Shown here: in pieces, positions 8,214 to 61,756 of the stretch | Layout: each line of letters begins with the position of its first letter | Numbering within the stretch: position 1 is the stretch's first letter | Assembly (NCBI GenBank): GCA_020851835.1 | Contig: JADZBZ010000167.1 | Span: forward strand, 13,128 to 77,127 | Source: Acidobacteriota bacterium | GTDB taxonomy: Bacteria > Acidobacteriota > Vicinamibacteria > Vicinamibacterales > UBA2999 | Direction of reading: 5' to 3' | Length of the DNA stretch: 64,000 nt | Notes under the pieces: generated by a model | Database searches by the model: none | The model's input: the letters and a program-made list of their open reading frames with translations, nothing else | Told to the model about the DNA's origin: nothing | Program-made: the position numbers and the translations under genes

Positions 8214-8908
8214 TCTCGATCATTGTGCCGACCCACAACGAGGCGGCCATTCTCGACGACACGCTCAGCGGCATCCTGCGACTGCAGCGCGAGGCAGGTG
8301 TCGAGCTGATCGTGACCGATGGAGGCAGCACAGATGAGACCGTGGCCATCGCGCGCCGGTACGCGCGCGTAGTCGAAGCCCCGAAGGGCAAAGGCAGCCA
8401 GCTCAACGCCGGCGCGCATGCGGCAGGGGGCGACGTGTTCTTCTTCGTCCATGCCGACACGTGGCTTCCGGAGGGCACACTACGAACCATCGAGACGGCG
8501 GTGCGTGCCGGCTACGACGGCGGCGGATTCTCGAATGCTTTCGAGTCTCACAATCGGCGCATCAAGATCGTCGGTCGCGCAATCCGGTTCCAGTTCCGTG
8601 ACAAGGAGAACGATCCCGCCAATACGTCGTTTTACGGCGACAACGGCATCTTTGCGACGCGCACCGCGTTCGAGGCCCTGGGCGGCTTCAAGCCGTTGCC
8701 GATCATGGAAGACTACGACTTCTCGCGGAGACTACGCGAGCGCTTTCGAGCGATCCGGATCGTCGATCCCAAGCTCGTCGTGTCCTCCAGACGGCAACGG
8801 CACGCGGGGCTGATCCGTACACATCTGCAGTGGTTCCTGATCAAACGGCTGTACCTGTTGGGCGTGCCGCCCCAAGTTCTGGCCCGGTGGTACGGCGACG
8901 TGCGCTGA
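8210..8908 (+). CDS. family-2 glycosyltransferase, TIGR04283-like (copy 1)
   Basis: IIVPTHNEA...TDGGSTDET...FVHADT GT-A motifs. The C-terminal LGVPPQVLARWYGDVR is shared with the paralog at 44110-44802. ATGA overlap with the hydroxylase gene. Confidence 0.75.
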   Translation: MISIIVPTHNEAAILDDTLSGILRLQREAGVELIVTDGGSTDETVAIARRYARVVEAPKGKGSQLNAGAHAAGGDVFFFVHADTWLPEGTLRTIETAVRAGYDGGGFSNAFESHNRRIKIVGRAIRFQFRDKENDPANTSFYGDNGIFATRTAFEALGGFKPLPIMEDYDFSRRLRERFRAIRIVDPKLVVSSRRQRHAGLIRTHLQWFLIKRLYLLGVPPQVLARWYGDVR

Positions 8909-15064: not shown

Positions 15065-17850
<2,786 letters not shown>

Positions 17851-39205: not shown

Positions 39206-39302
39206 TCTTAGGTCGAGGTGTGAACGGCTCGTCTGGGCGGAGCCGGGCATCGCGCGCGATTGCCGGCTGCCTCAACTGGACGCGCCTTTGGAGGAGAGAA
39301 AC

Positions 39303-40481
39303 ATGACCGTGTTGACAGACCGCGAGCTCGACGTCGACGAGGCCGTGCACAGCAGGTATTCCGACGCCGCTCTGGCCCGGGCACCTGAGCTCTGCTGTCC
39401 GGTGTCCTACGATTCCGGCCTGCTCGCCGCGATCCCTGAGGACGTGCTGGCGCGGGACTACGGGTGCGGGGATCCGACGCGCCACCTGCGGCCCGGTGAA
39501 ACGGTGCTCGACCTCGGCTCGGGCTCCGGCAAGGTGTGTTTTATCGCGAGTCAACTCGTCGGACCCGCCGGACGCGTGCTCGGCGTGGACGTGAACGACG
39601 ACATGCTGGCGCTCGCCAGGCGCAGCGCGCCGCTTGTCGCTCAACACACCGGCTACGCCAATGTCACCTTCGGCAAGGCTCGCATCCAGGACCTCGCCCT
39701 TGATCTGGATTGTCTCGGGACGTACCTCGCCGCTCGTCCGGTCCGGTCTTCCGCGGATCTCGATCGTCTCGATGCGGAACTCAGACGCCTTCGCGCGGAG
39801 TCGCCGTTGGTGGCCGACGGGTCGGTCGACGTGGTGCTCTCGAACTGCGTGCTGAACCTGGTCCGGCCGGAAGACAAGTCGCGACTGTTTGCCGAAGTAT
39901 TTCGTGTCCTCAGGAGAGGGGGGCGCGCCGTGATCTCGGACATCGTGTCCGACGAAGACGTCCCGTCCCACATGCAGCAGGACTCGGACTTGTGGACCGG
40001 TTGCATCTCGGGCGCGTTTCGCGAGGACTGCTTCCTCGAGGCTTTCGAGACCGCCGGCTTTCATGGCATCGCCGTCGCGGCAAGGTCGGAGGTGCCGTGG
40101 CGCACGGTCAAGGGCATCGAGTTCCGCAGCGTCACGGTCATCGCTCACAAAGGCAAGCAGGGTCCGTGCCTGGATCACAAGCAGTCCGTCATCTATCGCG
40201 GACCGTTCCGTGAGGTCACCGACGATGACGGCCACGTGCTGCGGCGAGGCGTGCGAACGGCGGTCTGCGCCAAGACGTTCAACATCTTCGCGCGCGAGCC
40301 GTACCGGTCGCATGTGGACCTGGTCGAGCCGCGGGTTCCTGTCGCGGCCGAGGATGCTCGGTCGTTTCCGTGTGCGAAGGGCGCCCTGATTCGCGATCCC
40401 CGCGAGACCAAGGGCGAGGGGTACGACGTGACGACGGCACCGAGCGGTGCGACGTGCTCGCCAGACGGGGGGTGCTGCTGA
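39303..40481 (+). CDS. arsM: arsenite S-adenosylmethionine methyltransferase
   Basis: ATG after GGAGGAG. The four catalytic-type Cys contexts of ArsM are visible (ELCCPVSYD, DYGCGDP, LSNCVLNLV, LWTGCISGA), with SAM motif VLDLGSGSG, the ArsM C-terminal domain and terminal GGCC. Confidence 0.8.
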   Translation: MTVLTDRELDVDEAVHSRYSDAALARAPELCCPVSYDSGLLAAIPEDVLARDYGCGDPTRHLRPGETVLDLGSGSGKVCFIASQLVGPAGRVLGVDVNDDMLALARRSAPLVAQHTGYANVTFGKARIQDLALDLDCLGTYLAARPVRSSADLDRLDAELRRLRAESPLVADGSVDVVLSNCVLNLVRPEDKSRLFAEVFRVLRRGGRAVISDIVSDEDVPSHMQQDSDLWTGCISGAFREDCFLEAFETAGFHGIAVAARSEVPWRTVKGIEFRSVTVIAHKGKQGPCLDHKQSVIYRGPFREVTDDDGHVLRRGVRTAVCAKTFNIFAREPYRSHVDLVEPRVPVAAEDARSFPCAKGALIRDPRETKGEGYDVTTAPSGATCSPDGGCC

Positions 40482-41503
40482 TGTCCCGGACGGCTGCTCT
40501 TCAGACCGCGACGGCTCCGGAGGCCGTCGGCACGCCGGGCTTCGCACGAACGCTCACGGGGGCGGGCCTCGCGCCCCTCACGCGTGGCCACGTCACGACG
40601 CTGCAGGTCAACGTCGGCCGGTTGTGCAACCTGGCGTGTCATCACTGCCACGTCGAGGCCGGGCCGCGCGAGACCGACGTCATGCCGGCGCCCGTGGCGG
40701 CGCGCATCGTGGACCTGCTGGATCTGAACCCCGGCATCGAGATCCTGGATCTCACCGGGGGCGCCCCGGAAATGAACCCGAGCTTCCGCCATCTCGTTCG
40801 TGAAGCGCGGCGGCGGCAGCGGCGGGTCATCGACCGCTGCAATCTCACCATCCTGCTCGATCCCCGCTTCGACGACTTGCCGGAATTCTTCGCCGCTCAG
40901 CAGGTCCACGTGGTCGCCAGCCTGCCGTGCTACACGGCGGAAAACGTCGACAGCCAGCGGGGGCGCGGGGTGTTCCATGAGAGCGTCGAGGCTTTGAGGC
41001 GGTTGAACGCCCTGGGATATGGTCGCCCGGACTCCGATCTCCGATTGGACCTGGTCTACAACCCGCTCGGGCCGTCCCTGCCGCCGCCACAGTCGGCTCT
41101 GGAGGCGACGTACCGCGAGGAACTCGGCCGCCTGTTCGGCATCGAGTTCCACCAACTGCTGACAATCACGAACATGCCGATCCGCCGGTTCGCCTGGACC
41201 CTCGAGCGGAGCGGCCAGACGGAGGCGTACATGAGCCTGCTCGTCAATCATTTCAATCCCGCCACGGTGGCGGGCCTGATGTGCCGGACTTTGGTGAGCG
41301 TCGGCTTCGACGGACGCCTGTACGACTGCGATTTCAACCAGATGCTGGGGCTGCCGATCGGCGGCGCGGCACAAGCGGCGCCGCGAACGGTGTGGGACGT
41401 CGACGCTCTCGATGTCCTGACGGGACGCGCGATCGCGACCGGCCGCCATTGCTTCGGGTGCACGGCCGGCGCGGGGTCGAGTTGCTCCGGAGCGCTCCTG
41501 TGA
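40481..41503 (+). CDS. arsS: arsenosugar-biosynthesis radical SAM protein ArsS (TIGR04167-type rSAM/Cys-rich domain)
   Basis: LQVNVGRLCNLACHHCHVEAGP (CxxxCxxC) and C-terminal Cys-rich tail HCFGCTAGAGSSCSG. 1-nt overlap (TGATG) with arsM. Confidence 0.8.
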   Translation: MSRTAALQTATAPEAVGTPGFARTLTGAGLAPLTRGHVTTLQVNVGRLCNLACHHCHVEAGPRETDVMPAPVAARIVDLLDLNPGIEILDLTGGAPEMNPSFRHLVREARRRQRRVIDRCNLTILLDPRFDDLPEFFAAQQVHVVASLPCYTAENVDSQRGRGVFHESVEALRRLNALGYGRPDSDLRLDLVYNPLGPSLPPPQSALEATYREELGRLFGIEFHQLLTITNMPIRRFAWTLERSGQTEAYMSLLVNHFNPATVAGLMCRTLVSVGFDGRLYDCDFNQMLGLPIGGAAQAAPRTVWDVDALDVLTGRAIATGRHCFGCTAGAGSSCSGALL

Positions 41504-49305: not shown

Positions 49306-49877
49306 CGCGGCGCCCCGCTCCGACGCACCGTCAGCAGCGTCCCAATCGACGGCCGATCGGCCGGTCCCGATCCGCGGTGAAGCAGTCTGACGATGCCCGA
49401 CGGATCCACGAGAACGTCTCCGCCGAGTTGATAGATGTCGTTGGCCAGGGCCGACGCTCGAGGCGTGCGCCCTCGGAACAGCTCCTTGATATATGCCCAA
49501 CAGGTGCGCGGCCCCCAGACATTCCACCGCGTGCCGAGAAACATGCCGCAGGCGGCATACAGCGTCCGCGTCTCATCGATGACAACCGGCCAGTCGAAGC
49601 CCATTTCGCGCACCCACGCGTCCGCGACCGGGCCTCCCATGAACGACACCACGACAATCTGGACATCGAGGTCTTGAAAGATCCGCTCGGAATCTTTCAG
49701 ATCGAGGAGGTGTCGGCGGCACGGCAGGCACCCCAGGTGCCGATGGAACACGAGCAGCAGCCAATGTCCGCGATAATCCTCGAGGCGACGCACCTGGCTT
49801 TGGGCGTCCGGAAGCTCGAACGGCGGGGCCTGACCTCCAACGACGGCGTGTGGCGGCTCCGGCGTCACCGCCGCCAC
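49302..49877 (-). CDS. peroxiredoxin-like (PRX_like2 / AhpC-TSA family) protein
   Basis: APPFELPD...WLLLVFHRHLGCLPCRRH thioredoxin-fold CxxC motif. GTG start. Confidence 0.7.
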   Translation of the reverse strand: MAAVTPEPPHAVVGGQAPPFELPDAQSQVRRLEDYRGHWLLLVFHRHLGCLPCRRHLLDLKDSERIFQDLDVQIVVVSFMGGPVADAWVREMGFDWPVVIDETRTLYAACGMFLGTRWNVWGPRTCWAYIKELFRGRTPRASALANDIYQLGGDVLVDPSGIVRLLHRGSGPADRPSIGTLLTVRRSGAPR

Positions 49878-51403
49878 CGGAGCACCGCCCGAAGCACCGC
49901 ACGAAGGCGAGGCGTCAACCGCGAGCGATTCCAGGCATCCCCGAGTCGTTTCCAGGCCTCGGATTGTGTCGGATACGGATGGATCGTCAGCCCGATTGAG
50001 CCCATGCGAACGCCGGCTCGCATGGCGACGACCATCTCGCCGATCAGCTCGCCCGCATGGCCCGCGACCATCGTCGCGCCCAGGATCGCGCCCGTGCGCC
50101 GATCGACGTGCACCCGCGCGAATCCCTCGGCGTCGTCATCCAGGATGGCGCGGTCATTCTCGGACAGCTCCACCGTCAAGGTGCTCACCGCGTCGCCCCG
50201 TTGCTCCGCATCCCCCGCGGACAGGCCCACGTGCGCCACTTCGGGATCGGTGTACGTCGCCCACGGCACGACCAGCGCGCTGGCTCTCTTGCGGCCGAAG
50301 AACAGGGCATTCTGCAAGACGATGCGCGCCATGGCGTCGGCCGCATGCGTGAACTTGTGGCGCGAACAGATATCCCCAGCGGCGTACACCCGGCGATTGG
50401 TGGTGCGCAGAAAATCGTCCACGATGACGCCGGCCGCGTGCCAGGCAACGCCGCCGGCGGCCAGATCTAGATCCTCGACGTTCGGGCTCCGCCCGACCGC
50501 GACGAGAATCTCGTCGCCTGCGACCTCGCCCTGCGCCCCGCTGGCCTCATACACCAGCACGCGCGGCTGATCGCCGGCACGCCGCTCGGCACGCAGAATC
50601 GTCGCGTGCCGTATCAGCGTGACCCCTTCGCGAAGGAGCGTCCGCTCCACGATGGCGGACGCGTCGGCGTCGTCGCGAGGCAGCAGACCGCCCCCGCGGA
50701 GAATCAAGGTAACCGCGCTGCCAAGGCGACGGAACGTCTGAGCCAGTTCGCAGCCAATCGGACCGGCGCCGATCACGAGCAGGTGGCGGGGTCGTTCGGT
50801 CAGCGAGAAGATCGTCTCATTCGAGTAGAAGCCCGTCTCGGCCAACCCCGGAACGTCAGGGACGGTCGGCCGCGCGCCCGTGGCGATCACGGCCCGGCTG
50901 AATTTCAGCGTCTGGTCGCCCACGGCCACCGCATCACCCTGAATGAAGCGAGCGTCGCCGAGGTACACGTCGACACCGAGGCTGGCCAGTCGCCCGACGG
51001 AGTCGTTTTTCGCGATCCCGGCACGCAATCGTCGCATGCGGGCCATGACCGCCGCGAAATCGACCGGATCGGGAGCGGGCGCGGCACCGATCCCGAACCG
51101 GCCGGCACTCCGCACGCCCGCCGCCGCCCGCGCCGCGCTGATTAGCGCTTTCGACGGAACGCACCCGAAGTTGAGGCAGTCGCCGCCCGTGAGATGACGC
51201 TCGACGATGGCAACCTTCGCGCCAAGGGAGGCGGCGCCGACCGCCGAGACCAAGCCGGCCGTGCCGGCGCCCAGGACGACGAGGTTGTAGCGCCCGGTCG
51301 GTGTGGGATTGACCCAGTCCGCGGGGTGCGCGTATCCCACGAGCGTTCGGTTGTGCTCGTCATCGGGAGCCACGAGCGACTGAGAAGGCGATGGGGGCGT
51401 CAT
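49865..51403 (-). CDS. MerA-like FAD-dependent disulfide oxidoreductase (no metal-binding N-domain, no C-terminal CC)
   Basis: YNLVVLGAGTAGLVSA, redox GGDCLNFGCVPSK, and a dimerisation domain ending HPYPTQSEA. Confidence 0.8.
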   Translation of the reverse strand: MTPPSPSQSLVAPDDEHNRTLVGYAHPADWVNPTPTGRYNLVVLGAGTAGLVSAVGAASLGAKVAIVERHLTGGDCLNFGCVPSKALISAARAAAGVRSAGRFGIGAAPAPDPVDFAAVMARMRRLRAGIAKNDSVGRLASLGVDVYLGDARFIQGDAVAVGDQTLKFSRAVIATGARPTVPDVPGLAETGFYSNETIFSLTERPRHLLVIGAGPIGCELAQTFRRLGSAVTLILRGGGLLPRDDADASAIVERTLLREGVTLIRHATILRAERRAGDQPRVLVYEASGAQGEVAGDEILVAVGRSPNVEDLDLAAGGVAWHAAGVIVDDFLRTTNRRVYAAGDICSRHKFTHAADAMARIVLQNALFFGRKRASALVVPWATYTDPEVAHVGLSAGDAEQRGDAVSTLTVELSENDRAILDDDAEGFARVHVDRRTGAILGATMVAGHAGELIGEMVVAMRAGVRMGSIGLTIHPYPTQSEAWKRLGDAWNRSRLTPRLRAVLRAVLRWRR

Positions 51404-52772: not shown

Positions 52773-53668
52773 TCTCTCCCGTTCAGCGACCAGTCGTACT
52801 CCAGGTAGGCGATCCGCGGCGGCGTGCCCGCCAACGCGCCGGCCATCGCTGGAGGCGCGTACCGGGCGACAAATTGCGGGACGGTCCCCGCGGCGCGCTC
52901 GAAGTCCTCCCGGTACCACCTGAAGATCGAGGACAGGCGCAGTGTTCGTGACGCTGCGTCCCACTGGTTCTTCGACGTGTCCGCCAGAAATCGCCGTGCC
53001 GCGTCGTCGAGCTCGGCGTCGAGCACGTCCGCGCGGTAGGCCTCGGACCGAAGCGCCGGACAGCCCTTTGATGCACAGACGAGCGCAAAGTGCACGCGCG
53101 GGTCCGCGAACTGGGTGCGTAGCACGTCATTCTCGATCGTGTTCAACGAGATCTTCTTGCCGTCGGCGCCAAGCGGGATGAAGCTCTTACGGAACGCGGC
53201 GTACGGCAGAAACCCGATCGAGCGAATGCTCTTCAGCGGGTAGTGATCGAGGACCAGGCGAACCGTAAACGCGTTGTAGGCATTGATCCAGTACGCCATC
53301 CGCTCCGGCCGAGTCCAGCCCCGCTCGTCCGGGACTGCCGCAGCGAGAGCGTCAAGATAGACATCCAGAGCGGGTTGTCCGCGCTGGAGGAGACCCTCGT
53401 AGTCGACGCCGCCGCTCGAATCGTATGTGGCGAGAATCGCCGTCCAGGCGCGATGCTCGTGATCGAAGGGCTCAACCTGCGCGGTCGTCGGTGGTTGTGC
53501 AGCGCTCTGCGCGCCGCTGAACGAGCGCGCATCACGCGATGGCGTGGCCATGGCGATCGATACCAAGCCGAGAAGGACCGCAGCGAAGCCGTATCGGACG
53601 GCCGGTGGGGCTTCCCGGAGGGCTGCGCGGCAGTCCGCGCACCCTCGGCCGATGTCGTGGTCACCCAT
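52769..53668 (-). CDS. DUF547 domain protein (membrane-anchored/secreted)
   Basis: YWINAYNAFTVRLVLDHYP...HFALVCASKGCPAL...YDWSLN hallmark blocks. Start uncertain (53668 or 53725). Confidence 0.8.
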   Translation of the reverse strand: MGDHDIGRGCADCRAALREAPPAVRYGFAAVLLGLVSIAMATPSRDARSFSGAQSAAQPPTTAQVEPFDHEHRAWTAILATYDSSGGVDYEGLLQRGQPALDVYLDALAAAVPDERGWTRPERMAYWINAYNAFTVRLVLDHYPLKSIRSIGFLPYAAFRKSFIPLGADGKKISLNTIENDVLRTQFADPRVHFALVCASKGCPALRSEAYRADVLDAELDDAARRFLADTSKNQWDAASRTLRLSSIFRWYREDFERAAGTVPQFVARYAPPAMAGALAGTPPRIAYLEYDWSLNGRE

Positions 53669-53687
53669 ATCGACAGCCCGTGGCCGC

Positions 53688-54131
53688 TCAGGCGTGCGCC
53701 ACGCGCACCTCGACGCCCCCCGCAATGGCGCCCAGCAGGCCGCCGTAGATCAAATGTCCGACGAGCGATCCCATGGCCGCCATGGCGCCGCCCATCTGGC
53801 TGCTGAACAGGCCGGCACCCATCATCGGCATCACGACCACCTGCGCCATGAGCCAAAGCCCCACGCCCCAGATGGTGCCCTTGACCGCCGGCGAACCCGG
53901 CAGCACGCCATACAGCCCGAAGGCGAAGATCGCCGGGAAGATCAGCGAGCCGTTGACGAAGTGCATCACCATGCCGGCCGACCAACTGTTGCCCAGCATC
54001 GATCCGAGCATGGCCGCGATGTCCATGTGAAGGCCCATCATGGGGGCCACGAGGTACATCATGGCCGTCATTGCCAGCGTGCCGAGGAAGCCGCCGAGGA
54101 TCGCGCGTGAGAAGTGTGGATGTGTCTGCAT
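53688..54131 (-). CDS. small 4-TM membrane protein (paralog of 31126-31608)
   Basis: Met-rich TM protein sharing HFVNG / GHLIYGGLLG blocks with 31126-31608. Confidence 0.55.
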   Translation of the reverse strand: MQTHPHFSRAILGGFLGTLAMTAMMYLVAPMMGLHMDIAAMLGSMLGNSWSAGMVMHFVNGSLIFPAIFAFGLYGVLPGSPAVKGTIWGVGLWLMAQVVVMPMMGAGLFSSQMGGAMAAMGSLVGHLIYGGLLGAIAGGVEVRVAHA

Positions 54132-54199
54132 GGTATCTCGCTCCGGTCAGGTGTCGCCCGCGCGCCGCCGTGCGGCGTCCCACGCGCTGGCTCTACAAC

Positions 54200-54228
54200 G
54201 TGTGTGAGCGGTAGGCGGCCGGCATTAC
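54200..54228 (-). promoter_or_regulatory. ECF-type promoter candidate, class 1 (one mismatch): GTAATG-N16-CACACAC
   Basis: Minus-strand reading is ctGTAATGccggccgcctaccgctCACACACgt, about 70 nt upstream of 54131 and just downstream of the DoxX stop. Confidence 0.4.
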
Positions 54229-54239
54229 AGCGGATGCCG

Positions 54240-54707
54240 TCAGCCGCTCGTCCGAGTACGGGGTGCGGCTGACCCGCGCAGGAATCGGCGGGCGATCAGG
54301 TGATCGAGCGACACCGCGCCCGGCCCACGGATCAACAGAAACAGCAGAATCGAGGCCCACACCAAGTGCTCGTTCCAGGCGTTGGGATACACAAAGGTCT
54401 GGATTACTGCGATCATGCCGAGGAGCGGCAGCGTGGCGATTCGTGTCGCCAGGCCCACGAACAGGAAGATCGGGAACGTCAGTTCCTGCGTCATCGCGAT
54501 CCGAGCGGCGACGGCCGGATCCAGTAGTGGCACCTTGTACTCGTCGCGGAACAGGAGCAGCGTCATCTGCCAGGAGTGATACTTGATCAGGCCGGCGTTG
54601 AAGAACACCGCGCCGACGGCGATGCGCATCGACAGTTGGATGAGCGAGAGCGGAAAGCGCTCGAGCCGACGACGACCTGCCATGACGAGTCTAGCGATGG
54701 ATCTCAC
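54240..54707 (-). CDS. DoxX-family membrane protein (bufferin-cluster associated)
   Basis: RIAVGAVFFNAGLIKY...LPLLGMIAVIQ DoxX pattern. Start may be the internal ATG at 54683. Confidence 0.8.
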   Translation of the reverse strand: MRSIARLVMAGRRRLERFPLSLIQLSMRIAVGAVFFNAGLIKYHSWQMTLLLFRDEYKVPLLDPAVAARIAMTQELTFPIFLFVGLATRIATLPLLGMIAVIQTFVYPNAWNEHLVWASILLFLLIRGPGAVSLDHLIARRFLRGSAAPRTRTSG

Positions 54708-55488
54708 AAGTGTCCTCCGAAGCGGCGGTGAGGATTGACGTGACCAGGTCGTCGGTAAACAGGGCGGTGAGCGCGCGACCGGGGTCGAAGGAGTCGTCCC
54801 GATCGAGCGCGCAATCGGCAGCTTCGCCCAGTGGAATCGCCGCGTGGACGCCCTGCCGAAACAGGAACTCCGATTCGGACAGACGCGCGAAGTCGAACTG
54901 TCCGCGCGCGCCCCGCACCTGCAGCCAGATGTGCTCCGGCTCGAGCACCAGGTGCTCCGGCGCGGTGTCGGTCAGATACAGCCGCATCAGGTTGTCGATC
55001 GGCCACGCCGCCTTGAGATAGTCCAGGCCTGGTTGGAGTCGGAGCCGGACTGCCGTCATCGCGTCCGCCTCCAGCGCGGCGAAGACATCGAACGTCACAG
55101 CCGGCGTCTCGACCTCGATGCTGACCTTCCCCAACTGCCAGTCCAGCGCAGCGAAGTCACCGGCGTACGGCACGTGCGCCAGCTCCGACCAGCCGGAAAG
55201 CCAGGGAGGAAACGTCTCGCCGTACTCTGCCAGGCATGGCGCCGTTGGAGGGCATGCCTTGATGAAGATGCGGGCCGCCTCGATGAGCAAAGGCGAGCCC
55301 AGCAGCCAAGCCGTAGCCGGAAAGCGCCGGAGCAGTCCCTTGACCAGACTGGTCTCGTAGTGGCGATGATGGATCGCGAGCCGTCGCCAGCCATCTCCTT
55401 GGCCAGCCACCAGAGACACGTTCTCGAGGGCGTCGCGGCCGAGGACGATGGCGTCGCGCACGCGTTGCTGCAGCTCAGCGAGCGACAT
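54691..55488 (-). CDS. bufC: DUF2063 protein (BufC-type partner of the DUF692 enzyme)
   Basis: LAELQQRVRDAIV...LAIHHRHYETSLVKGLLRRFPATAWLLG, the DUF2063 N-terminal pattern. It overlaps the DUF692 gene 3' end. Confidence 0.75.
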   Translation of the reverse strand: MSLAELQQRVRDAIVLGRDALENVSLVAGQGDGWRRLAIHHRHYETSLVKGLLRRFPATAWLLGSPLLIEAARIFIKACPPTAPCLAEYGETFPPWLSGWSELAHVPYAGDFAALDWQLGKVSIEVETPAVTFDVFAALEADAMTAVRLRLQPGLDYLKAAWPIDNLMRLYLTDTAPEHLVLEPEHIWLQVRGARGQFDFARLSESEFLFRQGVHAAIPLGEAADCALDRDDSFDPGRALTALFTDDLVTSILTAASEDTCEIHR

Positions 55489-56341
55489 GGGGTGCCCCTT
55501 GGGCCGCCTGTCGGGCCAACACGCTCGCCAGGGTGGCCTCGTCAAGCAGATCGGCGAAGCTGGGCAGGTCGTCGTCCCACTCGATCAGCGTGGGCTTGGG
55601 ACCAAAGCGCCGCAGCGCGTAGGTGTAGAGACGCCACGCCTCGTCGGCAATGGCCGTGTCGTGGGTATCGACCAACACGCGGGTTCCAGCGTCAGGATCG
55701 TCTTCGCTCTGAAATCCGCCCAAGTGCAGTTCCCCGATGGCCTCCGCCGGCAGGCCGTCTAGGTAGGCCCGGGCGTCGTACCCGAGGTTCTCGGAGCTGA
55801 CGTAGACGTTGCTCACGTCGCACAGCAGCCGGCAGCCCGTCCGCCGGACCAGCTCGCCCAGGAACTCGACCTCGGTCATGGTGGATGTGCCGAACCCGAA
55901 ATAGCTCGACGGGTTCTCGACCAGAAAAGGCCGGCCGAGGCCGTCCTGGACTTGGTGCAAGTGCATCGCTAGGAGGTCCAGCGTTTCGTCGTCGTACGGC
56001 AACGGCAGGAGGTCGTTGAGGTACTCGCCTCTGTGGGTCGACCAGGCGAGATGCCCCGAGACGAGCACCGGATTCACGAGATCGATGAGTTCCCGGATTC
56101 GGGCGACGTGCGCCCAGTCCACGCCGCTGGCGCTGCCGATCGACACGCCGACGGTGTGAACGGAAATCGGATAGTCCCCGGCGAGCTGCAGCAGCAACTC
56201 GAAGGCGTGTGGATTCGCCAGGAAGTTTTCCGGATGGATTTCCAGCCAGCCGGCTGGCGGGCGGGTGGCCACCACTTCCGAGAGATGCGGAAGCCGTAGT
56301 CCGACTCCTGCGCGTGAGAGCATCTGGTGAGTTCGGGACAT
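55475..56341 (-). CDS. bufB: DUF692 / MNIO-family multinuclear non-heme iron oxidase (BufB-type)
   Basis: GVGLRLPHLSEVV...WLEIHPENF...VSGHLAW...FLVENPSSY...IGELHLGG, the DUF692 TIM-barrel blocks. Start at MSRTHQ. Confidence 0.85.
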   Translation of the reverse strand: MSRTHQMLSRAGVGLRLPHLSEVVATRPPAGWLEIHPENFLANPHAFELLLQLAGDYPISVHTVGVSIGSASGVDWAHVARIRELIDLVNPVLVSGHLAWSTHRGEYLNDLLPLPYDDETLDLLAMHLHQVQDGLGRPFLVENPSSYFGFGTSTMTEVEFLGELVRRTGCRLLCDVSNVYVSSENLGYDARAYLDGLPAEAIGELHLGGFQSEDDPDAGTRVLVDTHDTAIADEAWRLYTYALRRFGPKPTLIEWDDDLPSFADLLDEATLASVLARQAAQGAPHVAR

Positions 56342-56375
56342 GGTGGCCACCCTTTCGACGGAGGAACGCCGCGTC

Positions 56376-56642
56376 TTACTTGGGGCTCGTGCTGCCGCCG
56401 ACGATCCGAGTGCAGTAGCCCGCCGGAACGTAAATCCAGGCTTTCGGATCGCTGTTCCTCTTCGATGTGCCGCCGCACGAGTTGTTGCCCTCCGAGGCGC
56501 AGTCGTTCTGGCCGGCCTTGGCGATGCCGTAACACTTCTCGGCCTTGAAGCTCGGCATCTCCGCCGGCTTTTGCGCCCACAGGATGCTCGGCGCGGCCGC
56601 GGCCGCAGCGAACGCCGACGCGATGACAAAACGCTTGTTCAT
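56376..56642 (-). CDS. bufA: DUF2282 bufferin-type RiPP precursor (BufA1-like)
   Basis: 88 aa. Sec signal MNKRFVIASAFAAAAAAPSILWA, then a core with four Cys: EKCYGIAKAGQNDCASEGNNSCGGTS...YVPAGYCTRI. Confidence 0.85.
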   Translation of the reverse strand: MNKRFVIASAFAAAAAAPSILWAQKPAEMPSFKAEKCYGIAKAGQNDCASEGNNSCGGTSKRNSDPKAWIYVPAGYCTRIVGGSTSPK

Positions 56643-56702
56643 ACGTGCCTCCCCATTTGGCCGGCGATCCGGGCTTATCCCGAAGAACTCGGCCACATCC
56701 GT

Positions 56703-56731
56703 GTGAGTGCAGGCCGCGGGGCGGACATTAC
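56703..56731 (-). promoter_or_regulatory. ECF-type promoter candidate, class 1: GTAATG-N16-CACTCAC
   Basis: Minus-strand reading is ctGTAATGtccgccccgcggcctgCACTCACac, about 60 nt upstream of bufA. Confidence 0.6.
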
Positions 56732-56752
56732 AGGCCCGGGAGGACCACGGCT

Positions 56753-56781
56753 GTAAGGTTTGCCGGTCAACCGGCACTCAC
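56753..56781 (+). promoter_or_regulatory. ECF-type promoter candidate, class 1: GTAAGG-N16-CACTCAC
   Basis: Read directly: ctGTAAGGtttgccggtcaaccggCACTCACta, about 85 nt upstream of trx-sigma2. It is back-to-back with the bufA promoter, 21 bp between the -35 elements. Confidence 0.6.
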
Positions 56782-56867
56782 TAGCTGTGGCCAACGCGGG
56801 CCGGCGGCCGAACGGAACGAACCCGTGGGCGGCCCGCGCGAGCTTAAAGGACATCAGGAGAGGTGTG

Positions 56868-57242
56868 ATGCAGTCTTCTTCCTCCGTGGCCGCAGCCGCG
56901 GCCGAGACGTTTGATGACGTGGTCCTGGGCGGCGACCGGCCTGTTGTCGTAGACTTCTGGGCGCCTTGGTGCGGCCCGTGCCGGCGCTTCGCGCCGATCT
57001 TTGAGGCCCTGGCTGCGGAATTGCGCGATCGCCTCGACTTCGTCAGCGTCAACGTGGAGGCAGAGCCCGCTCTTGGCGACCGGCTGCAGATCTTCAGTAT
57101 TCCGACCCTGAAACTCTTTCGCGCGGGGCGCGAGGTCGCGAGCCAGGTCGGCGCGGGCACGAAGGATCAGACGAGAGCGACCCTCGAGCAGTGGCTCGCT
57201 GCGCGGCCCCAGGACGAGCCCGCGCCAGTCAGCCGGCCCTGA
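56868..57242 (+). CDS. trxA: thioredoxin (WCGPC)
   Basis: [18 protein letters not shown]...IPTLKLF. ATG after AGGAGAGG. Confidence 0.85.
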
Positions 57243-57310
57243 TGTGGTCGGTCGGAACGCCGCTCTTGCCCACGACAGTTCGATCGGCGGCCGAGCTTCC
57301 TCTCTATGAT

Positions 57311-57889
57311 ATGGGTGTGACGGATCCGCTGGCTCGGCTGCGGCGCCGCGAACCGGCGACGCTCCACGAGATCGTGCATCAGAACACGCGGCGTTTGTTC
57401 CGGGCGGCCCAAGGCATGGGCTTCTCCTCGGCCGAGGCGGACGATCTCGTCCAGGATGTCTTCGTGACGTTCCTGGAGACGCTCGATCGCTTCGAGGGCC
57501 GATCGCAGGTCAGTACGTGGCTGTTCGGTATCCTGCACCACAAGGTACAGGAGCGGCGCCGGTCGCGGGCGCGCGACGACCTGCACGATCCGGTCGACGA
57601 GCTCTTTGAGTCGAAATTCGACGCGAAGGGGAAGTGGATCGCGCCCCTGCCGTCGCCGGACCGTGTGGCCTCCTCGGCACAGGCGGCCGGCGCGATCGCG
57701 GACTGCCTCCAGGGTTTGCCGCCCCTGCACCGTGAGGTGTTCCACCTCCGTGAAGTTGAGGAACTGTCCGCGGCGGACGTCAGTAATATCATCGGCCGCA
57801 CCGTCACTCACGTAGGAGTGCTGTTCCATCGCGCGCGCCTTCGACTGCGCGAGTGCCTGGACGGCAAAGGCTGGAGTCCACCGCGATGA
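57311..57889 (+). CDS. ECF (group 4) sigma-70 factor 2
   Basis: Region 2 ADDLVQDVFVTFLETLDRFEGRSQVSTWLFGILHHKV and region 4 LPPLHREVFHLREVEELSAADVSNIIGRTVTHVGVLFHRAR. The linker architecture is like sigma 1. Confidence 0.85.
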   Translation: MGVTDPLARLRRREPATLHEIVHQNTRRLFRAAQGMGFSSAEADDLVQDVFVTFLETLDRFEGRSQVSTWLFGILHHKVQERRRSRARDDLHDPVDELFESKFDAKGKWIAPLPSPDRVASSAQAAGAIADCLQGLPPLHREVFHLREVEELSAADVSNIIGRTVTHVGVLFHRARLRLRECLDGKGWSPPR

Positions 57890-58125
57890 TGTCGTGTAAA
57901 CAGGTGTCCACGCTGATGTCCACGGGAGGGCTCGCCGACGCGCCGCTCAGGCAGCGCCTCGCCGTGCGTCTGCACCTGATGATGTGCGACAAGTGTTCGA
58001 CGTTCAAACGCTGGCTGGAACTGATGGGCGTGGCCGCGCGCGCGGAGAGCCACGCCCACGAAGACGAGGCGCCCGCGGACCTCGAAGCGCGCACGCTGCG
58101 GCGCCTCGAGCGGTCGCAGCTGTAA
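57886..58125 (+). CDS. soluble ZAS (zf-HC2) anti-sigma factor 2
   Basis: MMSCKQVSTLMSTGGLADAPLRQRLAVRLHLMMCDKC has the N-terminal Cys plus H-x3-C-x2-C. 79 aa, no TM segment, ATGA overlap with the sigma 2 stop. Confidence 0.7.
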   Translation: MMSCKQVSTLMSTGGLADAPLRQRLAVRLHLMMCDKCSTFKRWLELMGVAARAESHAHEDEAPADLEARTLRRLERSQL

Positions 58126-58140
58126 CGAGGTGTGCGGCGT

Positions 58141-58557
58141 ATGGGCCAGATTGACAAGGACCTCGGAACGCCACACGATAGGTCGGTGCGGTTGCAGCAC
58201 ACGATCGCGGCCCTCTTCCTAATCGCTGGCCTCGTCACCTCGAGCCTGGCGACGTGCGTCGCTGGGTCGATGGATTTGCCAGCGGCGCAGATGGCCTGCT
58301 GTCGCGCCGGCCACATGATGTGCGGCGAGAACGGGACCGCCGCGGATTGCTGCAAGAGCAGCCCACGCGTGGAGATGCCGTTCACGACCGTTGCGAAGGT
58401 CGTCTTGCACCAGCCGTGGCGTGCCTCGTCGGACGCACTGATTCCATTCGCCTCAATCGCCGCGCGTCCGGTCAGCCCCCTGGGCCGGCTCGACGGTCCG
58501 TCGCCGCCAAGTGTGCGGCGGTCCACTTACCTCCTGCTCTCCGTTCTTCGCGTCTAG
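58141..58557 (+). CDS. membrane-anchored Cys/Met/His-rich protein, unassigned
   Basis: ATG 58141 after GAGGTG. One TM (IAALFLIAGLVTSSLATCVAG), then AAQMACCRAGHMMCGENGTAADCCKSS. Lies between the anti-sigma 2 gene and the cusCBA-like genes. Confidence 0.5.
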   Translation: MGQIDKDLGTPHDRSVRLQHTIAALFLIAGLVTSSLATCVAGSMDLPAAQMACCRAGHMMCGENGTAADCCKSSPRVEMPFTTVAKVVLHQPWRASSDALIPFASIAARPVSPLGRLDGPSPPSVRRSTYLLLSVLRV

Positions 58558-58739: not shown

Positions 58740-60110
58740 ATGACGTGCAGAAGAATCCGGTGTCTCTTCACGATCGACCAGGGGCTGCGACCTCCGCGAG
58801 GGTGGCGGAGGCGCGCCGCGACTGCCGCGACGGCGGCGGTTCTCGCAGTCGCGATGGCTCACGGGCTGACGGTCGAGGCAGCCCCCGGACAGAGTCCGCC
58901 GCGCGTCGAACAGGCGAACCCTGCGGTGGCATCGACGCCGCTCTCAACGCTGGTGGACGAGCTCATGCGCCAGAATCCGGACGTCCTGGCCGCCCGGAGC
59001 GCCGCGACCGCGGCGTCCTACGTGGCGCCGCAGGTATCGAGCCTGCCGGACCCGCGCGTGACGGTTCAGCAGATGAACGTCGGCAACCCGCTGCCCTTCG
59101 CGGGATATACCAGCAATAACTTCGCGTACCTCGCGGTGGGCATCTCCCAGGCGCTGCCGTATCCCGGCAAGCGCGCGCTGCGGGCGGACGTGGCGCGGGG
59201 CGACGCGGACGTTGCGACGGCGCGCATCGACGTCGTGTCGCGCGATCAGATCGAAGAGTTGAAGAAGACGTACGCGCGCCTGGCGTATTCACAGGCCGCC
59301 CTCGCCAACCTCGAACGCGACAATGCCCTCCTCCAGCAAGTGGAGCAGCAGGCGCACGCGCGGTACGCGAGCGGTCAGGGCAATCAGCAGGACGTCCTGC
59401 GCGCCCAACTGGAACGCACGACGATCCTGCGTGAGATGTCCTTGAACCGGCAGGCCAGCGGCGAAGCGCAGGCCGAGGTGAAGCGCCTCGTCCGGCGCGC
59501 GCAGGACTCGCCGGACATCGTGACCGAGGCGCTGGCGGCCACCTTCCTGCGGCAGACGCGCGCCGAACTGCTCGACGCGGTCCGCGCCGGGAACCCGGAC
59601 GTCCGCGAACAGTCGGCGGCCGTGACGCGCAATCAGACCGCCGTCGCACTGGCCGAGAAGGAGTTCCGCCCGGATTTTGGCGTCGCGTTCATGTATCAGA
59701 ACACGGGGCCGGCGTTTCCCGACTACTACATGGCCACGTTCGACGTCACGTTCCACCGCCACGCGCCCCGCGACGCCGCGCTGGCCCAGGCGCGTGTGAA
59801 CGTCGACCGCGCGGATCAGCAGCGGGATGCCGCGCTGCAGACCGCACTTGCGGACGCGCAGCGGCAGTACGTCATCGCGAAGACCGCGGAAGAACAGCTC
59901 CTGATCTACCGCGACGGACTGATCCCGCAGGCGCAGGCGACCATCCAGGCGGGACTCGCCGCGTATCAGGCGAACCGTGAAGACTTCCAGACGCTCCTCG
60001 CGTCGTTCGTGGACGTCCTGACCCTTGACCTGCAATACCAACAGACGCTGCTCGATCACGAAACGGCGCTGGCGCGCCTCGAACGACTCACAGGAGTGGC
60101 CCTGCGATGA
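58740..60110 (+). CDS. cusC: TolC-family outer membrane efflux protein
   Basis: ATG after GGAGGAAACAGGA. Signal-like N-terminus and two OEP repeats (LSTLVDELMRQNPDVLAA ... LLDAVRAGNPDV). Confidence 0.8.
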   Translation: MTCRRIRCLFTIDQGLRPPRGWRRRAATAATAAVLAVAMAHGLTVEAAPGQSPPRVEQANPAVASTPLSTLVDELMRQNPDVLAARSAATAASYVAPQVSSLPDPRVTVQQMNVGNPLPFAGYTSNNFAYLAVGISQALPYPGKRALRADVARGDADVATARIDVVSRDQIEELKKTYARLAYSQAALANLERDNALLQQVEQQAHARYASGQGNQQDVLRAQLERTTILREMSLNRQASGEAQAEVKRLVRRAQDSPDIVTEALAATFLRQTRAELLDAVRAGNPDVREQSAAVTRNQTAVALAEKEFRPDFGVAFMYQNTGPAFPDYYMATFDVTFHRHAPRDAALAQARVNVDRADQQRDAALQTALADAQRQYVIAKTAEEQLLIYRDGLIPQAQATIQAGLAAYQANREDFQTLLASFVDVLTLDLQYQQTLLDHETALARLERLTGVALR

Positions 60111-61756
60111 GTGCCGCCGACACGAACCACCCCACCTCCACGCAACACCCCTCCGATGGGCCGGCGACCGGCCAGTGGCATCGGCGCGCGTTCGCGATTG
60201 CGCTCGCGGGCTTCGTCGTCATGGCGGTCGTCGCCGCCGGCCTCGCGTGGCGGCTGTACACCAGCGGCGCTACGAGGCAGACTGCGGCGGACACGCCGCC
60301 GGCGGCCACCGTGGCCGACGCTGGTGCGTCACCGGAATCCACGATCGGCGCAACCGGACCAGGGCCGGCGTCGCAGCCGGCGCTGCAGCCGATTCAACTG
60401 TCGCCGCAGCGGCTGATGAGCATCGGCGTGCAGACCGGGGAGGTCGTCGTCAAGCCGGTCTCGCGGGAGATTCGGTCAGTGGGCAACGTCGTCGTCGACG
60501 AACGGCGGCTCTCGACCGTGCAGGTGCGGTTCGCGGGCTGGATCCATCAGGTGTACGTGGACGCGACCTACGACTACGTGAAACAGGGGCAACCGCTGTT
60601 CACGATCTACAGCCCGGACCTCGTGACCACGGAGCGCGAATATCTCGTCGCGAAGAAGAACCGCGACGCCGTGGCGTCGAGCGCGGTGCCCGGCGTCGCC
60701 GAAGGCGCCCAGGCCATCCTCGATGCCTCGGTGGCGCGACTGCGACAATGGAATCTGCCGCCGCGAGAGATCGAGCGCCTGCAATCGACCGGTGAAGTCC
60801 GCGCCGACCTCGAGATCGACGCACCCGCGACCGGGTACGTCACCGAGCGTCACGCGCTGCCGAACATGTACGTCCAGCCCCAGACGCCGCTGTATACCGT
60901 GGCTGACCTGTCGTCCGTCTGGGTCGTCGGCGAGTTCTTTCAGAGCGACATCGGGCAGTTCATGCGCGGCCAGCCCGCCACGATCACGACCGACGCGTAT
61001 CCCGGGCACGATTTTCGCGGCCGCGTCGACCAGGTGTACCCGCAAATCGACATGACGACCCGGACAGGCAAGGTTCGCTTCGTGTTTCCGAACGCGGATC
61101 TGAAGCTGACGCCGGGCATGTTCGTGACGGTGATGGCGAGCATTCCGATCGGCCGCGAACCCGTCGTGGCCGCGTCCGCGGTGCTGCACTCGGGCGCGCG
61201 GGACATCGCCTTCATCGATCACGGCGGGGGCTACCTCGAGCCCCGCGAGGTCGAGGTTGGACCACGCGTGGGTGATGAGGTCGTCGTGCGCAAGGGGCTG
61301 CGGGCGGGCGAACGGGTGGTGACGTCCGCCAACTTCCTGGTCGACTCGGAGAGCCAGCTGCAGGCCGCCCTCGGATCGTTTGCCCCGCCACCGCCTGGCG
61401 CCGGCGCGGCGGCGGCGATGAACGCTCCAGCGGCCGCCGCGACGCTGACGCTCACGACTGATCCCTCGCCTCCGCGGAAGGGCATGAACGCCCTTCGCGT
61501 GCAGGTCAAGGATGGGTCGGGCGCGCCGCTTGCGGGCGCCCAAGTCAGCGTGACGTTCTTCATGCCGGCGATGCCCGCGATGGGGATGGCGGCCATGCGC
61601 GCCGCCGCCGATCTGACCGAGCGCGGCGCGGGGACCTATGTCGGACAGCTCACGCTGGCGTCGGGCGGCACGTGGCAGGTCACCGTCGTCGCGCAGGAGG
61701 ACGGCCGCCCGGTGGCGCGGCAGCAGCTCTCGCTCACGGCCACGGGAGGGATGTAG
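60107..61756 (+). CDS. cusB: RND periplasmic adaptor (CusB-type) with C-terminal YtkA/FixH-like Met-rich domain
   Basis: HlyD-type barrel/lipoyl blocks (VQVRFAGWIHQVYVD...GQPLFTIYSPDL...). Extra ~110-aa C-terminal domain with FFMPAMPAMGMAAM. ATGA overlap with the OMF gene. Confidence 0.8.
   Translation: MSAADTNHPTSTQHPSDGPATGQWHRRAFAIALAGFVVMAVVAAGLAWRLYTSGATRQTAADTPPAATVADAGASPESTIGATGPGPASQPALQPIQLSPQRLMSIGVQTGEVVVKPVSREIRSVGNVVVDERRLSTVQVRFAGWIHQVYVDATYDYVKQGQPLFTIYSPDLVTTEREYLVAKKNRDAVASSAVPGVAEGAQAILDASVARLRQWNLPPREIERLQSTGEVRADLEIDAPATGYVTERHALPNMYVQPQTPLYTVADLSSVWVVGEFFQSDIGQFMRGQPATITTDAYPGHDFRGRVDQVYPQIDMTTRTGKVRFVFPNADLKLTPGMFVTVMASIPIGREPVVAASAVLHSGARDIAFIDHGGGYLEPREVEVGPRVGDEVVVRKGLRAGERVVTSANFLVDSESQLQAALGSFAPPPPGAGAAAAMNAPAAAATLTLTTDPSPPRKGMNALRVQVKDGSGAPLAGAQVSVTFFMPAMPAMGMAAMRAAADLTERGAGTYVGQLTLASGGTWQVTVVAQEDGRPVARQQLSLTATGGM

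Follow-up and report, generated by a model that had tools for sequence, protein, structure and literature searches.

A Buf1-type bufferin operon of an Acidobacteriota bacterium under the predicted control of a neighbouring ECF sigma factor

The papers on bufferins raised the question of whether these peptides also serve stresses other than copper, and the locus analysed here is a concrete setting for it. It lies in a 64,000-nucleotide stretch of DNA from an Acidobacteriota bacterium (hereafter the window), in which four genes of the minus strand, bufABCD, had been read in a first-pass annotation as a bufferin cluster embedded among metal-resistance genes. What does this operon make, and what turns it on? 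We consider, with a probability of about 0.88, that bufABCD is a functional Buf1-type bufferin operon, with a copper-chelating product, that is run by the adjacent extracytoplasmic function (ECF) sigma factor.

The complete set of four genes was confirmed, all of them intact on the minus strand:

bufA, 56376-56642, minus strand: 88-residue Buf1/DUF2282 precursor (PF10048, 80 bits against a cut-off of 22.4)
bufB, 55475-56341, minus strand: iron-dependent oxidase of the MNIO (DUF692) family, 288 residues (PF05114, 308 bits)
bufC, 54691-55488, minus strand: DUF2063 partner protein, 265 residues (PF09836, 47 bits against a cut-off of 27)
bufD, 54240-54707, minus strand: DoxX-family membrane protein (PF07681, 45 bits against a cut-off of 23.6)

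The profile searches for DUF2282, DUF692 and DUF2063 that the annotation had proposed as a check all gave scores above their cut-offs. The short overlaps that it described between the genes hold for bufB and bufC (14 nt) and for bufC and bufD (17 nt, counting from the GTG start of bufD at 54707), but bufA and bufB do not overlap and are separated by a 34-nt gap. An alternative ATG at 54683 may be the true start of bufD, because its relatives align from residue 10-12. A terminator scan of positions 53600-57400 yielded one weak site only, within bufD. The DUF2282 and MNIO genes are each present in a single copy in this metagenome-assembled genome (3.9 Mb, 577 contigs).

The 88-residue, four-cysteine precursor was recovered exactly as described earlier, including its core sequence. 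The PF10048 match spans profile positions 2-52 of 53, and the length of BufA fits the 80-120 range. A Shine-Dalgarno sequence (GGGGAGG) is found 5 nt upstream of its ATG codon. We rejected an N-terminally extended BufA starting from an upstream GTG, as the relatives start at the Met of MNKR or MNTR and the Shine-Dalgarno sequence immediately precedes that Met. Residues 1-24 make up a predicted Sec signal peptide, with a basic n-region (K3, R4), the hydrophobic stretch FVIASAFAAAAAAPSIL and a cleavage-type site between LWA and QK. This layout is common to the relatives in alignment A1, which comprises BufA and 21 proteins of 57-88% identity from Acidobacteriota, Alpha- and Gammaproteobacteria, Gemmatimonadota and Acidimicrobiia. 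The core after the predicted cleavage has 64 residues and contains Cys37, Cys48, Cys56 and Cys77, all invariant in the alignment. The spacing of the first three (I-11-II-8-III) is that of Cys12, Cys23 and Cys31 of Caulobacter Buf1. One relative, 77% identical to BufA and encoded in a Vicinamibacterales genome, is named 'BufA1 family periplasmic bufferin-type metallophore' by the NCBI.

BufB passes the NCBI equivalog model NF050167 (MNIO_BufB) with 330 bits against a cut-off of 310, but it scores just 65 bits on the MbnB model, for which the cut-off is 325. Its residues H62, H97, E142, N143, D175, N178, H206, D225 and H227 are identical in the three homologues of solved structure, 3BWW, TglH (8HCI) and MbnB (7DZ9), and E254 is identical in 3BWW and TglH, the sole two alignments that reach that position. 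By analogy with MbnB, these ten conserved positions are candidate metal ligands. The model scores bear on the chemistry of the product, as the modified residues might be oxazolone-thioamide pairs, as in methanobactin, rather than 5-thiooxazoles. In two reports, closely related MNIO enzymes are assigned either chemistry, and the two are described as hard to distinguish (10.64898/2025.12.15.693703, 10.64898/2026.06.05.730506). However, the nuclear magnetic resonance data on Caulobacter Buf1 (PMC11626156) and later selective labelling support thiooxazoles in bufferins, and BufB is much closer to the BufB model than to that of MbnB. Methanobactin-type rings thus appear very improbable here.

In BufC, the PF09836 match covers residues 6-97. 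The AlphaFold2 model of this protein has a predicted local distance difference test (pLDDT) score of 93, and its top fold match is the MNIO partner protein TglI (8HI7_A, E = 2.5e-6), followed by the Neisseria DUF2063 protein NGO1945 (3DEE, E = 1.7e-3). The matches of the model with the RiPP recognition element (RRE) proteins TbiB1 and lasso B1 are weak (E about 2) and are suggestive only of an RRE-like C-terminal domain. Sequence searches with BufA and BufC against the PDB gave no match. BufD is 49-78% identical to the fourth gene products of related loci and scores 47 bits on the HvfX family model NF050144, under its cut-off of 80.

The order of the four genes is kept in 59 of the 71 related loci with enough sequence, among 80 from species genomes, and the DoxX gene comes fourth in 59 of the 71. 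In two related loci (L066 and L084), the DoxX gene is found upstream of bufA, beside DUF547 and oxidoreductase genes, and not after bufC; two others (L027 and L070) have two DoxX genes in tandem. Because the features that define the Buf1 family at the sequence level (Leprevost et al. 2024, PMC11626156; Antoine et al. 2025, PMC12452194) are all present, our analysis supports the view that the locus is a typical Buf1 cluster whose peptide and enzymes are ordinary for the published family, as the annotation had proposed. The only characterised Buf1 is the Caulobacter peptide, the two central cysteines of which are converted to thiooxazoles and bind copper, with dissociation constants (Kd) of about 6e-15 M for Cu(II) and 7e-20 M for Cu(I); copper is selected from a metal mixture (PMC11626156). 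The gene cluster as such adds nothing new, since bufferins were described in 2024, thousands of clusters have been catalogued and close relatives are already named publicly.

The control of the operon is less ordinary. The following elements were identified upstream of bufA, in the divergent operon and after bufD:

56704..56732, minus strand: predicted ECF-type promoter of bufA, TGTAATG (-35, 56726-56732), 16 nt and CACTCA (-10, 56704-56709), an exact match to the pattern
56752..56780, plus strand: divergent twin promoter of the thioredoxin-sigma-anti-sigma operon, TGTAAGG-N16-CACTCA
56868..57242, plus strand: thioredoxin (WCGPC), first gene of the divergent operon (PF00085, 93 bits; TIGR01068, 101.7 bits against a cut-off of 96.8)
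57311..57889, plus strand: ECF sigma factor with Sigma70_r2 and r4_2 domains (TIGR02937, 78 bits), start codon inferred
57886..58125, plus strand: 79-residue soluble zinc-binding anti-sigma (ZAS) protein, zf-HC2, with Cys4 and H30-x3-C34-x2-C37, overlapping the sigma gene by 4 nt
54201..54229, minus strand: promoter copy before the DUF6789 operon, TGTAATG-N16-CACACA, one mismatch, 11 nt past the bufD stop codon

The last of these copies would mark where the buf operon ends and the DUF6789 operon begins. A scan of positions 53600-57400 for sigma-70-type promoters found none.

The ECF sigma factor encoded back to back with bufA likely regulates bufABCD. Its orthologues (54-64% identity) are divergent from bufA in eight related loci, and all eight carry a CACTCA-type motif, 84-95 nt before the bufA start codon. 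The Caulobacter buf1 operon, in contrast, is driven by SigF from a GTAACC-N16-CGAA promoter, and a membrane protein, NrsF, keeps SigF in check (PMC3511200). Close relatives were sampled twice without bias, as 80 genome loci and 80 metagenome loci, and the promoter type was read from the 300 nt preceding bufA. The SigF-type motif was present in 49 of the former and 57 of the latter, and the CACTCA-type motif in ten and six, respectively. The latter type, GTAAY-N17-CACTCA, is thus found in about 10% of the relatives. None of the SigF/NrsF-type features was found at the present locus, where the promoter is TGTAATG-N16-CACTCA, the anti-sigma protein is a 79-residue ZAS protein rather than NrsF, and the sigma factor is only 20-25% identical to the SigF-type neighbours of related loci. 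A relative from the same taxonomic family (L009) has the SigF motif together with a confirmed NrsF (DUF1109) neighbour. The same peptide machinery would thus be plugged into two stress switches within one bacterial family.

There is precedent for the other switch. In Neisseria, an operon of MNIO, DUF2063 and DoxX genes is under the ECF sigma factor SigE, whose anti-sigma MseR is a small ZAS protein of the cytoplasm in which Cys4 is essential (PMC2893595), and in Haemophilus the RpoE2/HrsE pair, induced by hypochlorous acid (HOCl), drives an MNIO/DoxX operon (PMC7907618). The anti-sigma protein of the present locus (MMSCK...HLMMCDKC) has no hydrophobic segment and agrees with Neisseria MseR in its Cys4 and ZAS pattern (PMC2893595), a likeness established by motif. 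It scores 48.8 bits on NF052368 (antisigmaE), just short of the cut-off of 50, and shows a weak match to the RsiW anti-sigma domain. The Buf1 cluster here appears to sit under an MseR/HrsE-type ECF-ZAS switch, unlike the published SigF/NrsF control.

Because neither bufB nor the sigma factor is present in any of the 19 other genomes of the genus (G001-G019), and the two occur together in two other genera of the family, the module formed by them is accessory, and it probably moves horizontally. Outside the genus, it was found in G020, G022 and G039, which belong to the family or the order. Mis-binning probably explains the implausible taxonomic labels (Bifidobacteriaceae, Dehalococcoidia) of several related contigs.

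We determined how far the promoter motif extends beyond the buf genes. The pattern TGTAANG-N15-17-CACTCA occurs four times in the window and never in shuffled sequences, and a looser version, allowing as many as two mismatches, has 12 copies where 3.75 are expected. Further copies precede merT (18045), arsM (39176), a dehalogenase-reductase pair (31621) and a module with a secreted thioredoxin (45505). The pattern GTAANN-N16-CACTCA has ten copies in the assembled sequence of the genome, compared with one or two in shuffled genomes, and all ten are in the window, at 1330-57810 (contig C167:14458-70910). Given this confinement, the predicted regulon of the sigma factor would form a single island of about 57 kb, with mer, ars, thiol-redox, buf and Cus genes. 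These counts bear out the proposal of the annotation that the buf operon shares its promoter motif with the neighbouring metal loci. One copy, at 57782-57810 on the plus strand, falls within the sigma gene itself, in its 3' end and some 75 nt ahead of the anti-sigma start, and the relative L007 has the same intragenic copy at the equivalent place (8703-8729). It could be an internal promoter of the anti-sigma gene or a by-product of the conserved region-4 coding sequence.

Part of the reported metal context also stands. A merT gene and a true merA gene are present at 15065-17817, about 36 kb from the buf genes, genes for ArsS and an ArsM-like methyltransferase at 39288-41503, and a pump of the CusA/CzcA family starts at 61672, preceded upstream of the Cus genes by the motif-bearing thioredoxin-sigma operon. 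The pump carries the motif AIGVLVDAGIVMVEN in its fourth transmembrane segment, which is of the CusA (Cu/Ag) type in the published HME-RND classification. In contrast, the mer-like gene nearest to the buf genes does not code for MerA: the flavoprotein at 49865-51403, three genes beyond bufD, reaches 372 bits against the MerA cut-off of 454 and is an FAD oxidoreductase of NF004991.

One sigma factor appears to tie a bufferin to mercury, arsenic and copper-efflux genes, and the annotation had gone further, proposing that the BufA peptide may buffer more than copper. It might then be a broad soft-metal buffer, for Hg, Ag, As(III) and Cd besides Cu. Such a role would explain the co-regulation with mer, ars and Cus genes, as bufA has its promoter in common with merT, arsM and, upstream of the Cus genes, the thioredoxin-sigma operon. 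MerC-Buf1 fusion proteins do occur in mercury clusters (PMC12452194), and Cd, Cr and Au induce the operons of Caulobacter and Cupriavidus (PMC11626156, PMC3511200). Homologues of the FAD oxidoreductase, DUF547, BrxC, DUF6789 or arsM/arsS genes are moreover found within 10 kb of bufA in 15 of the 80 related loci, which, as a raw count, suggests a recurrent association. However, co-induction tells when the peptide is made and not what it binds, and Caulobacter Buf1 took copper from a metal mixture with Kd values of about 1e-15 to 1e-20 M (PMC11626156). Besides, nothing in the peptide hints at a changed specificity, since the BufA core is near-identical to those of relatives in ordinary contexts. 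We therefore regard a broad metal range as quite unlikely, and a copper-chelating BufA as the better reading of the locus.

The composition of the island might also indicate that the operon belongs chiefly to an envelope response to oxidants or thiol stress, for instance to hypochlorite, with metal binding being secondary. This is the role proposed for the RpoE2 regulon of Haemophilus and the SigE regulon of Neisseria; RpoE2 is induced by HOCl and drives its own MNIO/DoxX operon (PMC7907618). The predicted sensor here is a cytoplasmic cysteine/zinc anti-sigma protein of the MseR/HrsE kind, and the regulon holds thioredoxins, a BrxC-like bacilliredoxin, a CcdA-type protein and disulfide reductases. 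Nevertheless, it also includes the dedicated metal genes merTA, arsM/arsS and that of the CusA-type pump with AIGVLVDAGIVMVEN, and the phenotypes of Buf1 deletion in Caulobacter are copper-specific (PMC11626156). The two roles can coexist, and a chiefly oxidant-directed operon seems unlikely, though somewhat less so than a broad metal buffer. A Buf1-type operon with a copper-chelating product, run by the adjacent sigma factor, remains the reading that we favour.

Several points weigh against that reading. The modification, export and metal binding of BufA are deduced entirely by homology, and its signal peptide was assigned by eye only. The AlphaFold2 model of BufA, built with 22 close relatives, has a pLDDT of 56, too low to check the fold or the disulfide. 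The link between the promoter and the sigma factor is correlational only, and the -10 element of Neisseria sigma-E is CGTCTAA (PMC2893595), compared with CACTCA here. Finally, as the assembly is fragmented, additional copies of the motif beyond the assembled sequence are possible.

The transcript of bufA harbours another unusual feature, located between the -10 element and the ribosome-binding site:

56658..56695, minus strand: three-tier hairpin of the bufA leader, UGGCCG...CGGG-AUAAG-CCCG...CGGCCA

It folds with -21.6 kcal/mol (z = -2.4). The same architecture is present in all 13 distinct leaders of CACTCA-type loci, with a mean z of -1.7 relative to dinucleotide shuffles. In these leaders, the GGGAU at the apical loop is invariant, the 5' arm is conserved (GUGRCGRAU) and the 3' arm varies. 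The two arms co-vary, as indicated by an arm-swap test in which the leaders folded better with their own arms (-23.9 kcal/mol) than with the 3' arms of other loci (-20.7 kcal/mol; permutation p = 5e-5). Because the 3' arms differ in length, MAFFT and RNAalifold recovered the apical hairpin alone; the evidence for the hairpin consists of single-sequence folds, shuffles and the arm-swap test. A search of the leader and intergenic region against Rfam matched no family. We also considered a small upstream open reading frame in the leader and rejected it, as the frames differ among loci and that of L031 has a stop at codon 4.

The hairpin would be at or near the 5' end of the transcript, and its simplest reading is a stabilising 5' stem-loop. 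The invariant GGGAU loop suggests something more specific. The SigF-type leaders in Acidobacteriota have a related hairpin, CCGAUGUCCGG. In one metagenome contig (L092, Ga0326597_10003402), the 5'-arm motif GTGGCGGAC is repeated seven times in tandem between the -10 element and the apical hairpin.

Taken together, these data are consistent with the following model. BufA would be synthesised as an 88-residue precursor, and in the cytoplasm the iron enzyme BufB, together with BufC, would convert Cys48 and Cys56 to 5-thiooxazole rings, as deduced from Caulobacter Buf1. The modified peptide would be exported by the Sec system, cleavage after Ala24 would remove residues 1-24, and a Cys37-Cys77 disulfide would form in the exported peptide. 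The folded 64-residue peptide would chelate periplasmic copper through its two heterocycles, lowering free Cu(I) and Cu(II) under stress, and BufD would be a conserved membrane accessory. Judging from the sequence patterns, transcription would start from GTAATG-N16-CACTCA and depend on the ECF sigma factor encoded back to back with the operon, not on SigF/NrsF. The small cytoplasmic zinc/cysteine anti-sigma protein would restrain this sigma factor until thiol-reactive agents, namely soft metals or oxidants, cause its release. The freed sigma factor would then turn on the bufferin genes along with the mer, arsM/arsS, thiol-redox and Cus-pump operons of the same accessory island of roughly 57 kb.

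Only the rewired control, the regulon spanning the island and the hairpin of the leader deserve further attention in this otherwise ordinary locus. They lead us to a wider proposal, which is tentative and, taken as a whole, rather doubtful. In a minority Buf1 lineage, about 8-12% of close relatives, the periplasm-sensing SigF/NrsF system might have been exchanged for a cytoplasmic thiol- and zinc-sensing ECF-ZAS system, which in this genome would command a self-contained, horizontally variable island of about 57 kb. The island contains merT/merA, arsM/arsS, a radical-SAM/DUF547 thiol-redox set, thioredoxins and the Cus pump, and the leader hairpin may add control at the RNA level. If this is true, a general response to soft metals and thiol-reactive agents includes the bufferin as one of its arms, and the peptide may see substrates beyond copper.

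Other genes around the operon are worth describing. The 147-residue DUF6789 protein (53688-54131, minus strand) is a very Met-rich membrane protein encoded directly after bufD, with its own promoter copy. Its homologues are found within 1.5 kb of bufA in four related loci (L022, L032, L035 and L077), and the protein may recur beside bufferins and have a role related to copper. The oxidoreductase, DUF547, BrxC, DUF6789 and ars neighbours mentioned above are seen, among others, in L010, L013, L019, L023, L066 and L084, and the oxidoreductase gene of L019 comes directly after bufD. Positions 58132-58557, flanked by the anti-sigma gene and the pump's outer-membrane gene, code for a 141-residue protein rich in Cys, Met and His without a family match. 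The CusB-type adaptor (60107-61756) has an extra C-terminal YtkA/FixH-like domain with an MPAMPAMGM run.

We compared the locus with known systems. The methanobactin proteins MbnABC resemble it in that an MNIO enzyme and a partner turn the cysteines of a ribosomal peptide into copper-binding heterocycles. However, the Mbn precursor is different and has no Sec signal, the chemistry is that of oxazolone-thioamides, and the system scavenges copper rather than buffering it. The gig operon of Cupriavidus metallidurans (RMET_RS24090-24075) is closer. It is a homologous four-gene Buf1 operon that is induced by transition metals in a metal-resistant soil bacterium (PMC11626156), and the likeness is one of description.

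The MNIO, DUF2063 and DoxX genes of Neisseria meningitidis (NMB2140-NMB2145, SigE/MseR) and the hvf/DoxX genes of Haemophilus influenzae (RpoE2-HrsE) are under the control of an ECF sigma factor, as predicted here (PMC2893595, PMC7907618, PMC11252979). Their small cytoplasmic ZAS proteins, with an essential Cys near position 4, resemble the one encoded in the window, and the -35 elements of all three begin with GTAA/GTMAG. In contrast, the substrate of the Haemophilus MNIO enzyme is HvfA, a precursor other than the DUF2282 peptide of our locus (PMC11252979), and the sigma gene of Neisseria is in the same operon as the MNIO genes, whereas it is divergent here. Both species have small regulons in which msrAB, and not metal resistance, is central.

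The closest counterpart is buf1ABCD of Caulobacter vibrioides (CCNA_03363-03366 / CC3254-CC3257), with the same four families in the same order (PMC11626156). Both loci code for a DUF2282 precursor with a Sec signal and four cysteines at the same spacing, a BufB-type MNIO enzyme, a DUF2063 protein and a DoxX protein, and in both an adjacent ECF sigma factor is, or appears to be, in control. They differ in the identity of the switch, SigF with membrane-bound NrsF acting at GTAACC-N16-CGAA in Caulobacter (PMC3511200), and here an unrelated ECF sigma factor with a ZAS protein, predicted to act at GTAATG-N16-CACTCA. They also differ in its reach, as the predicted regulon of the Acidobacteriota locus additionally takes in mer, ars and Cus genes.

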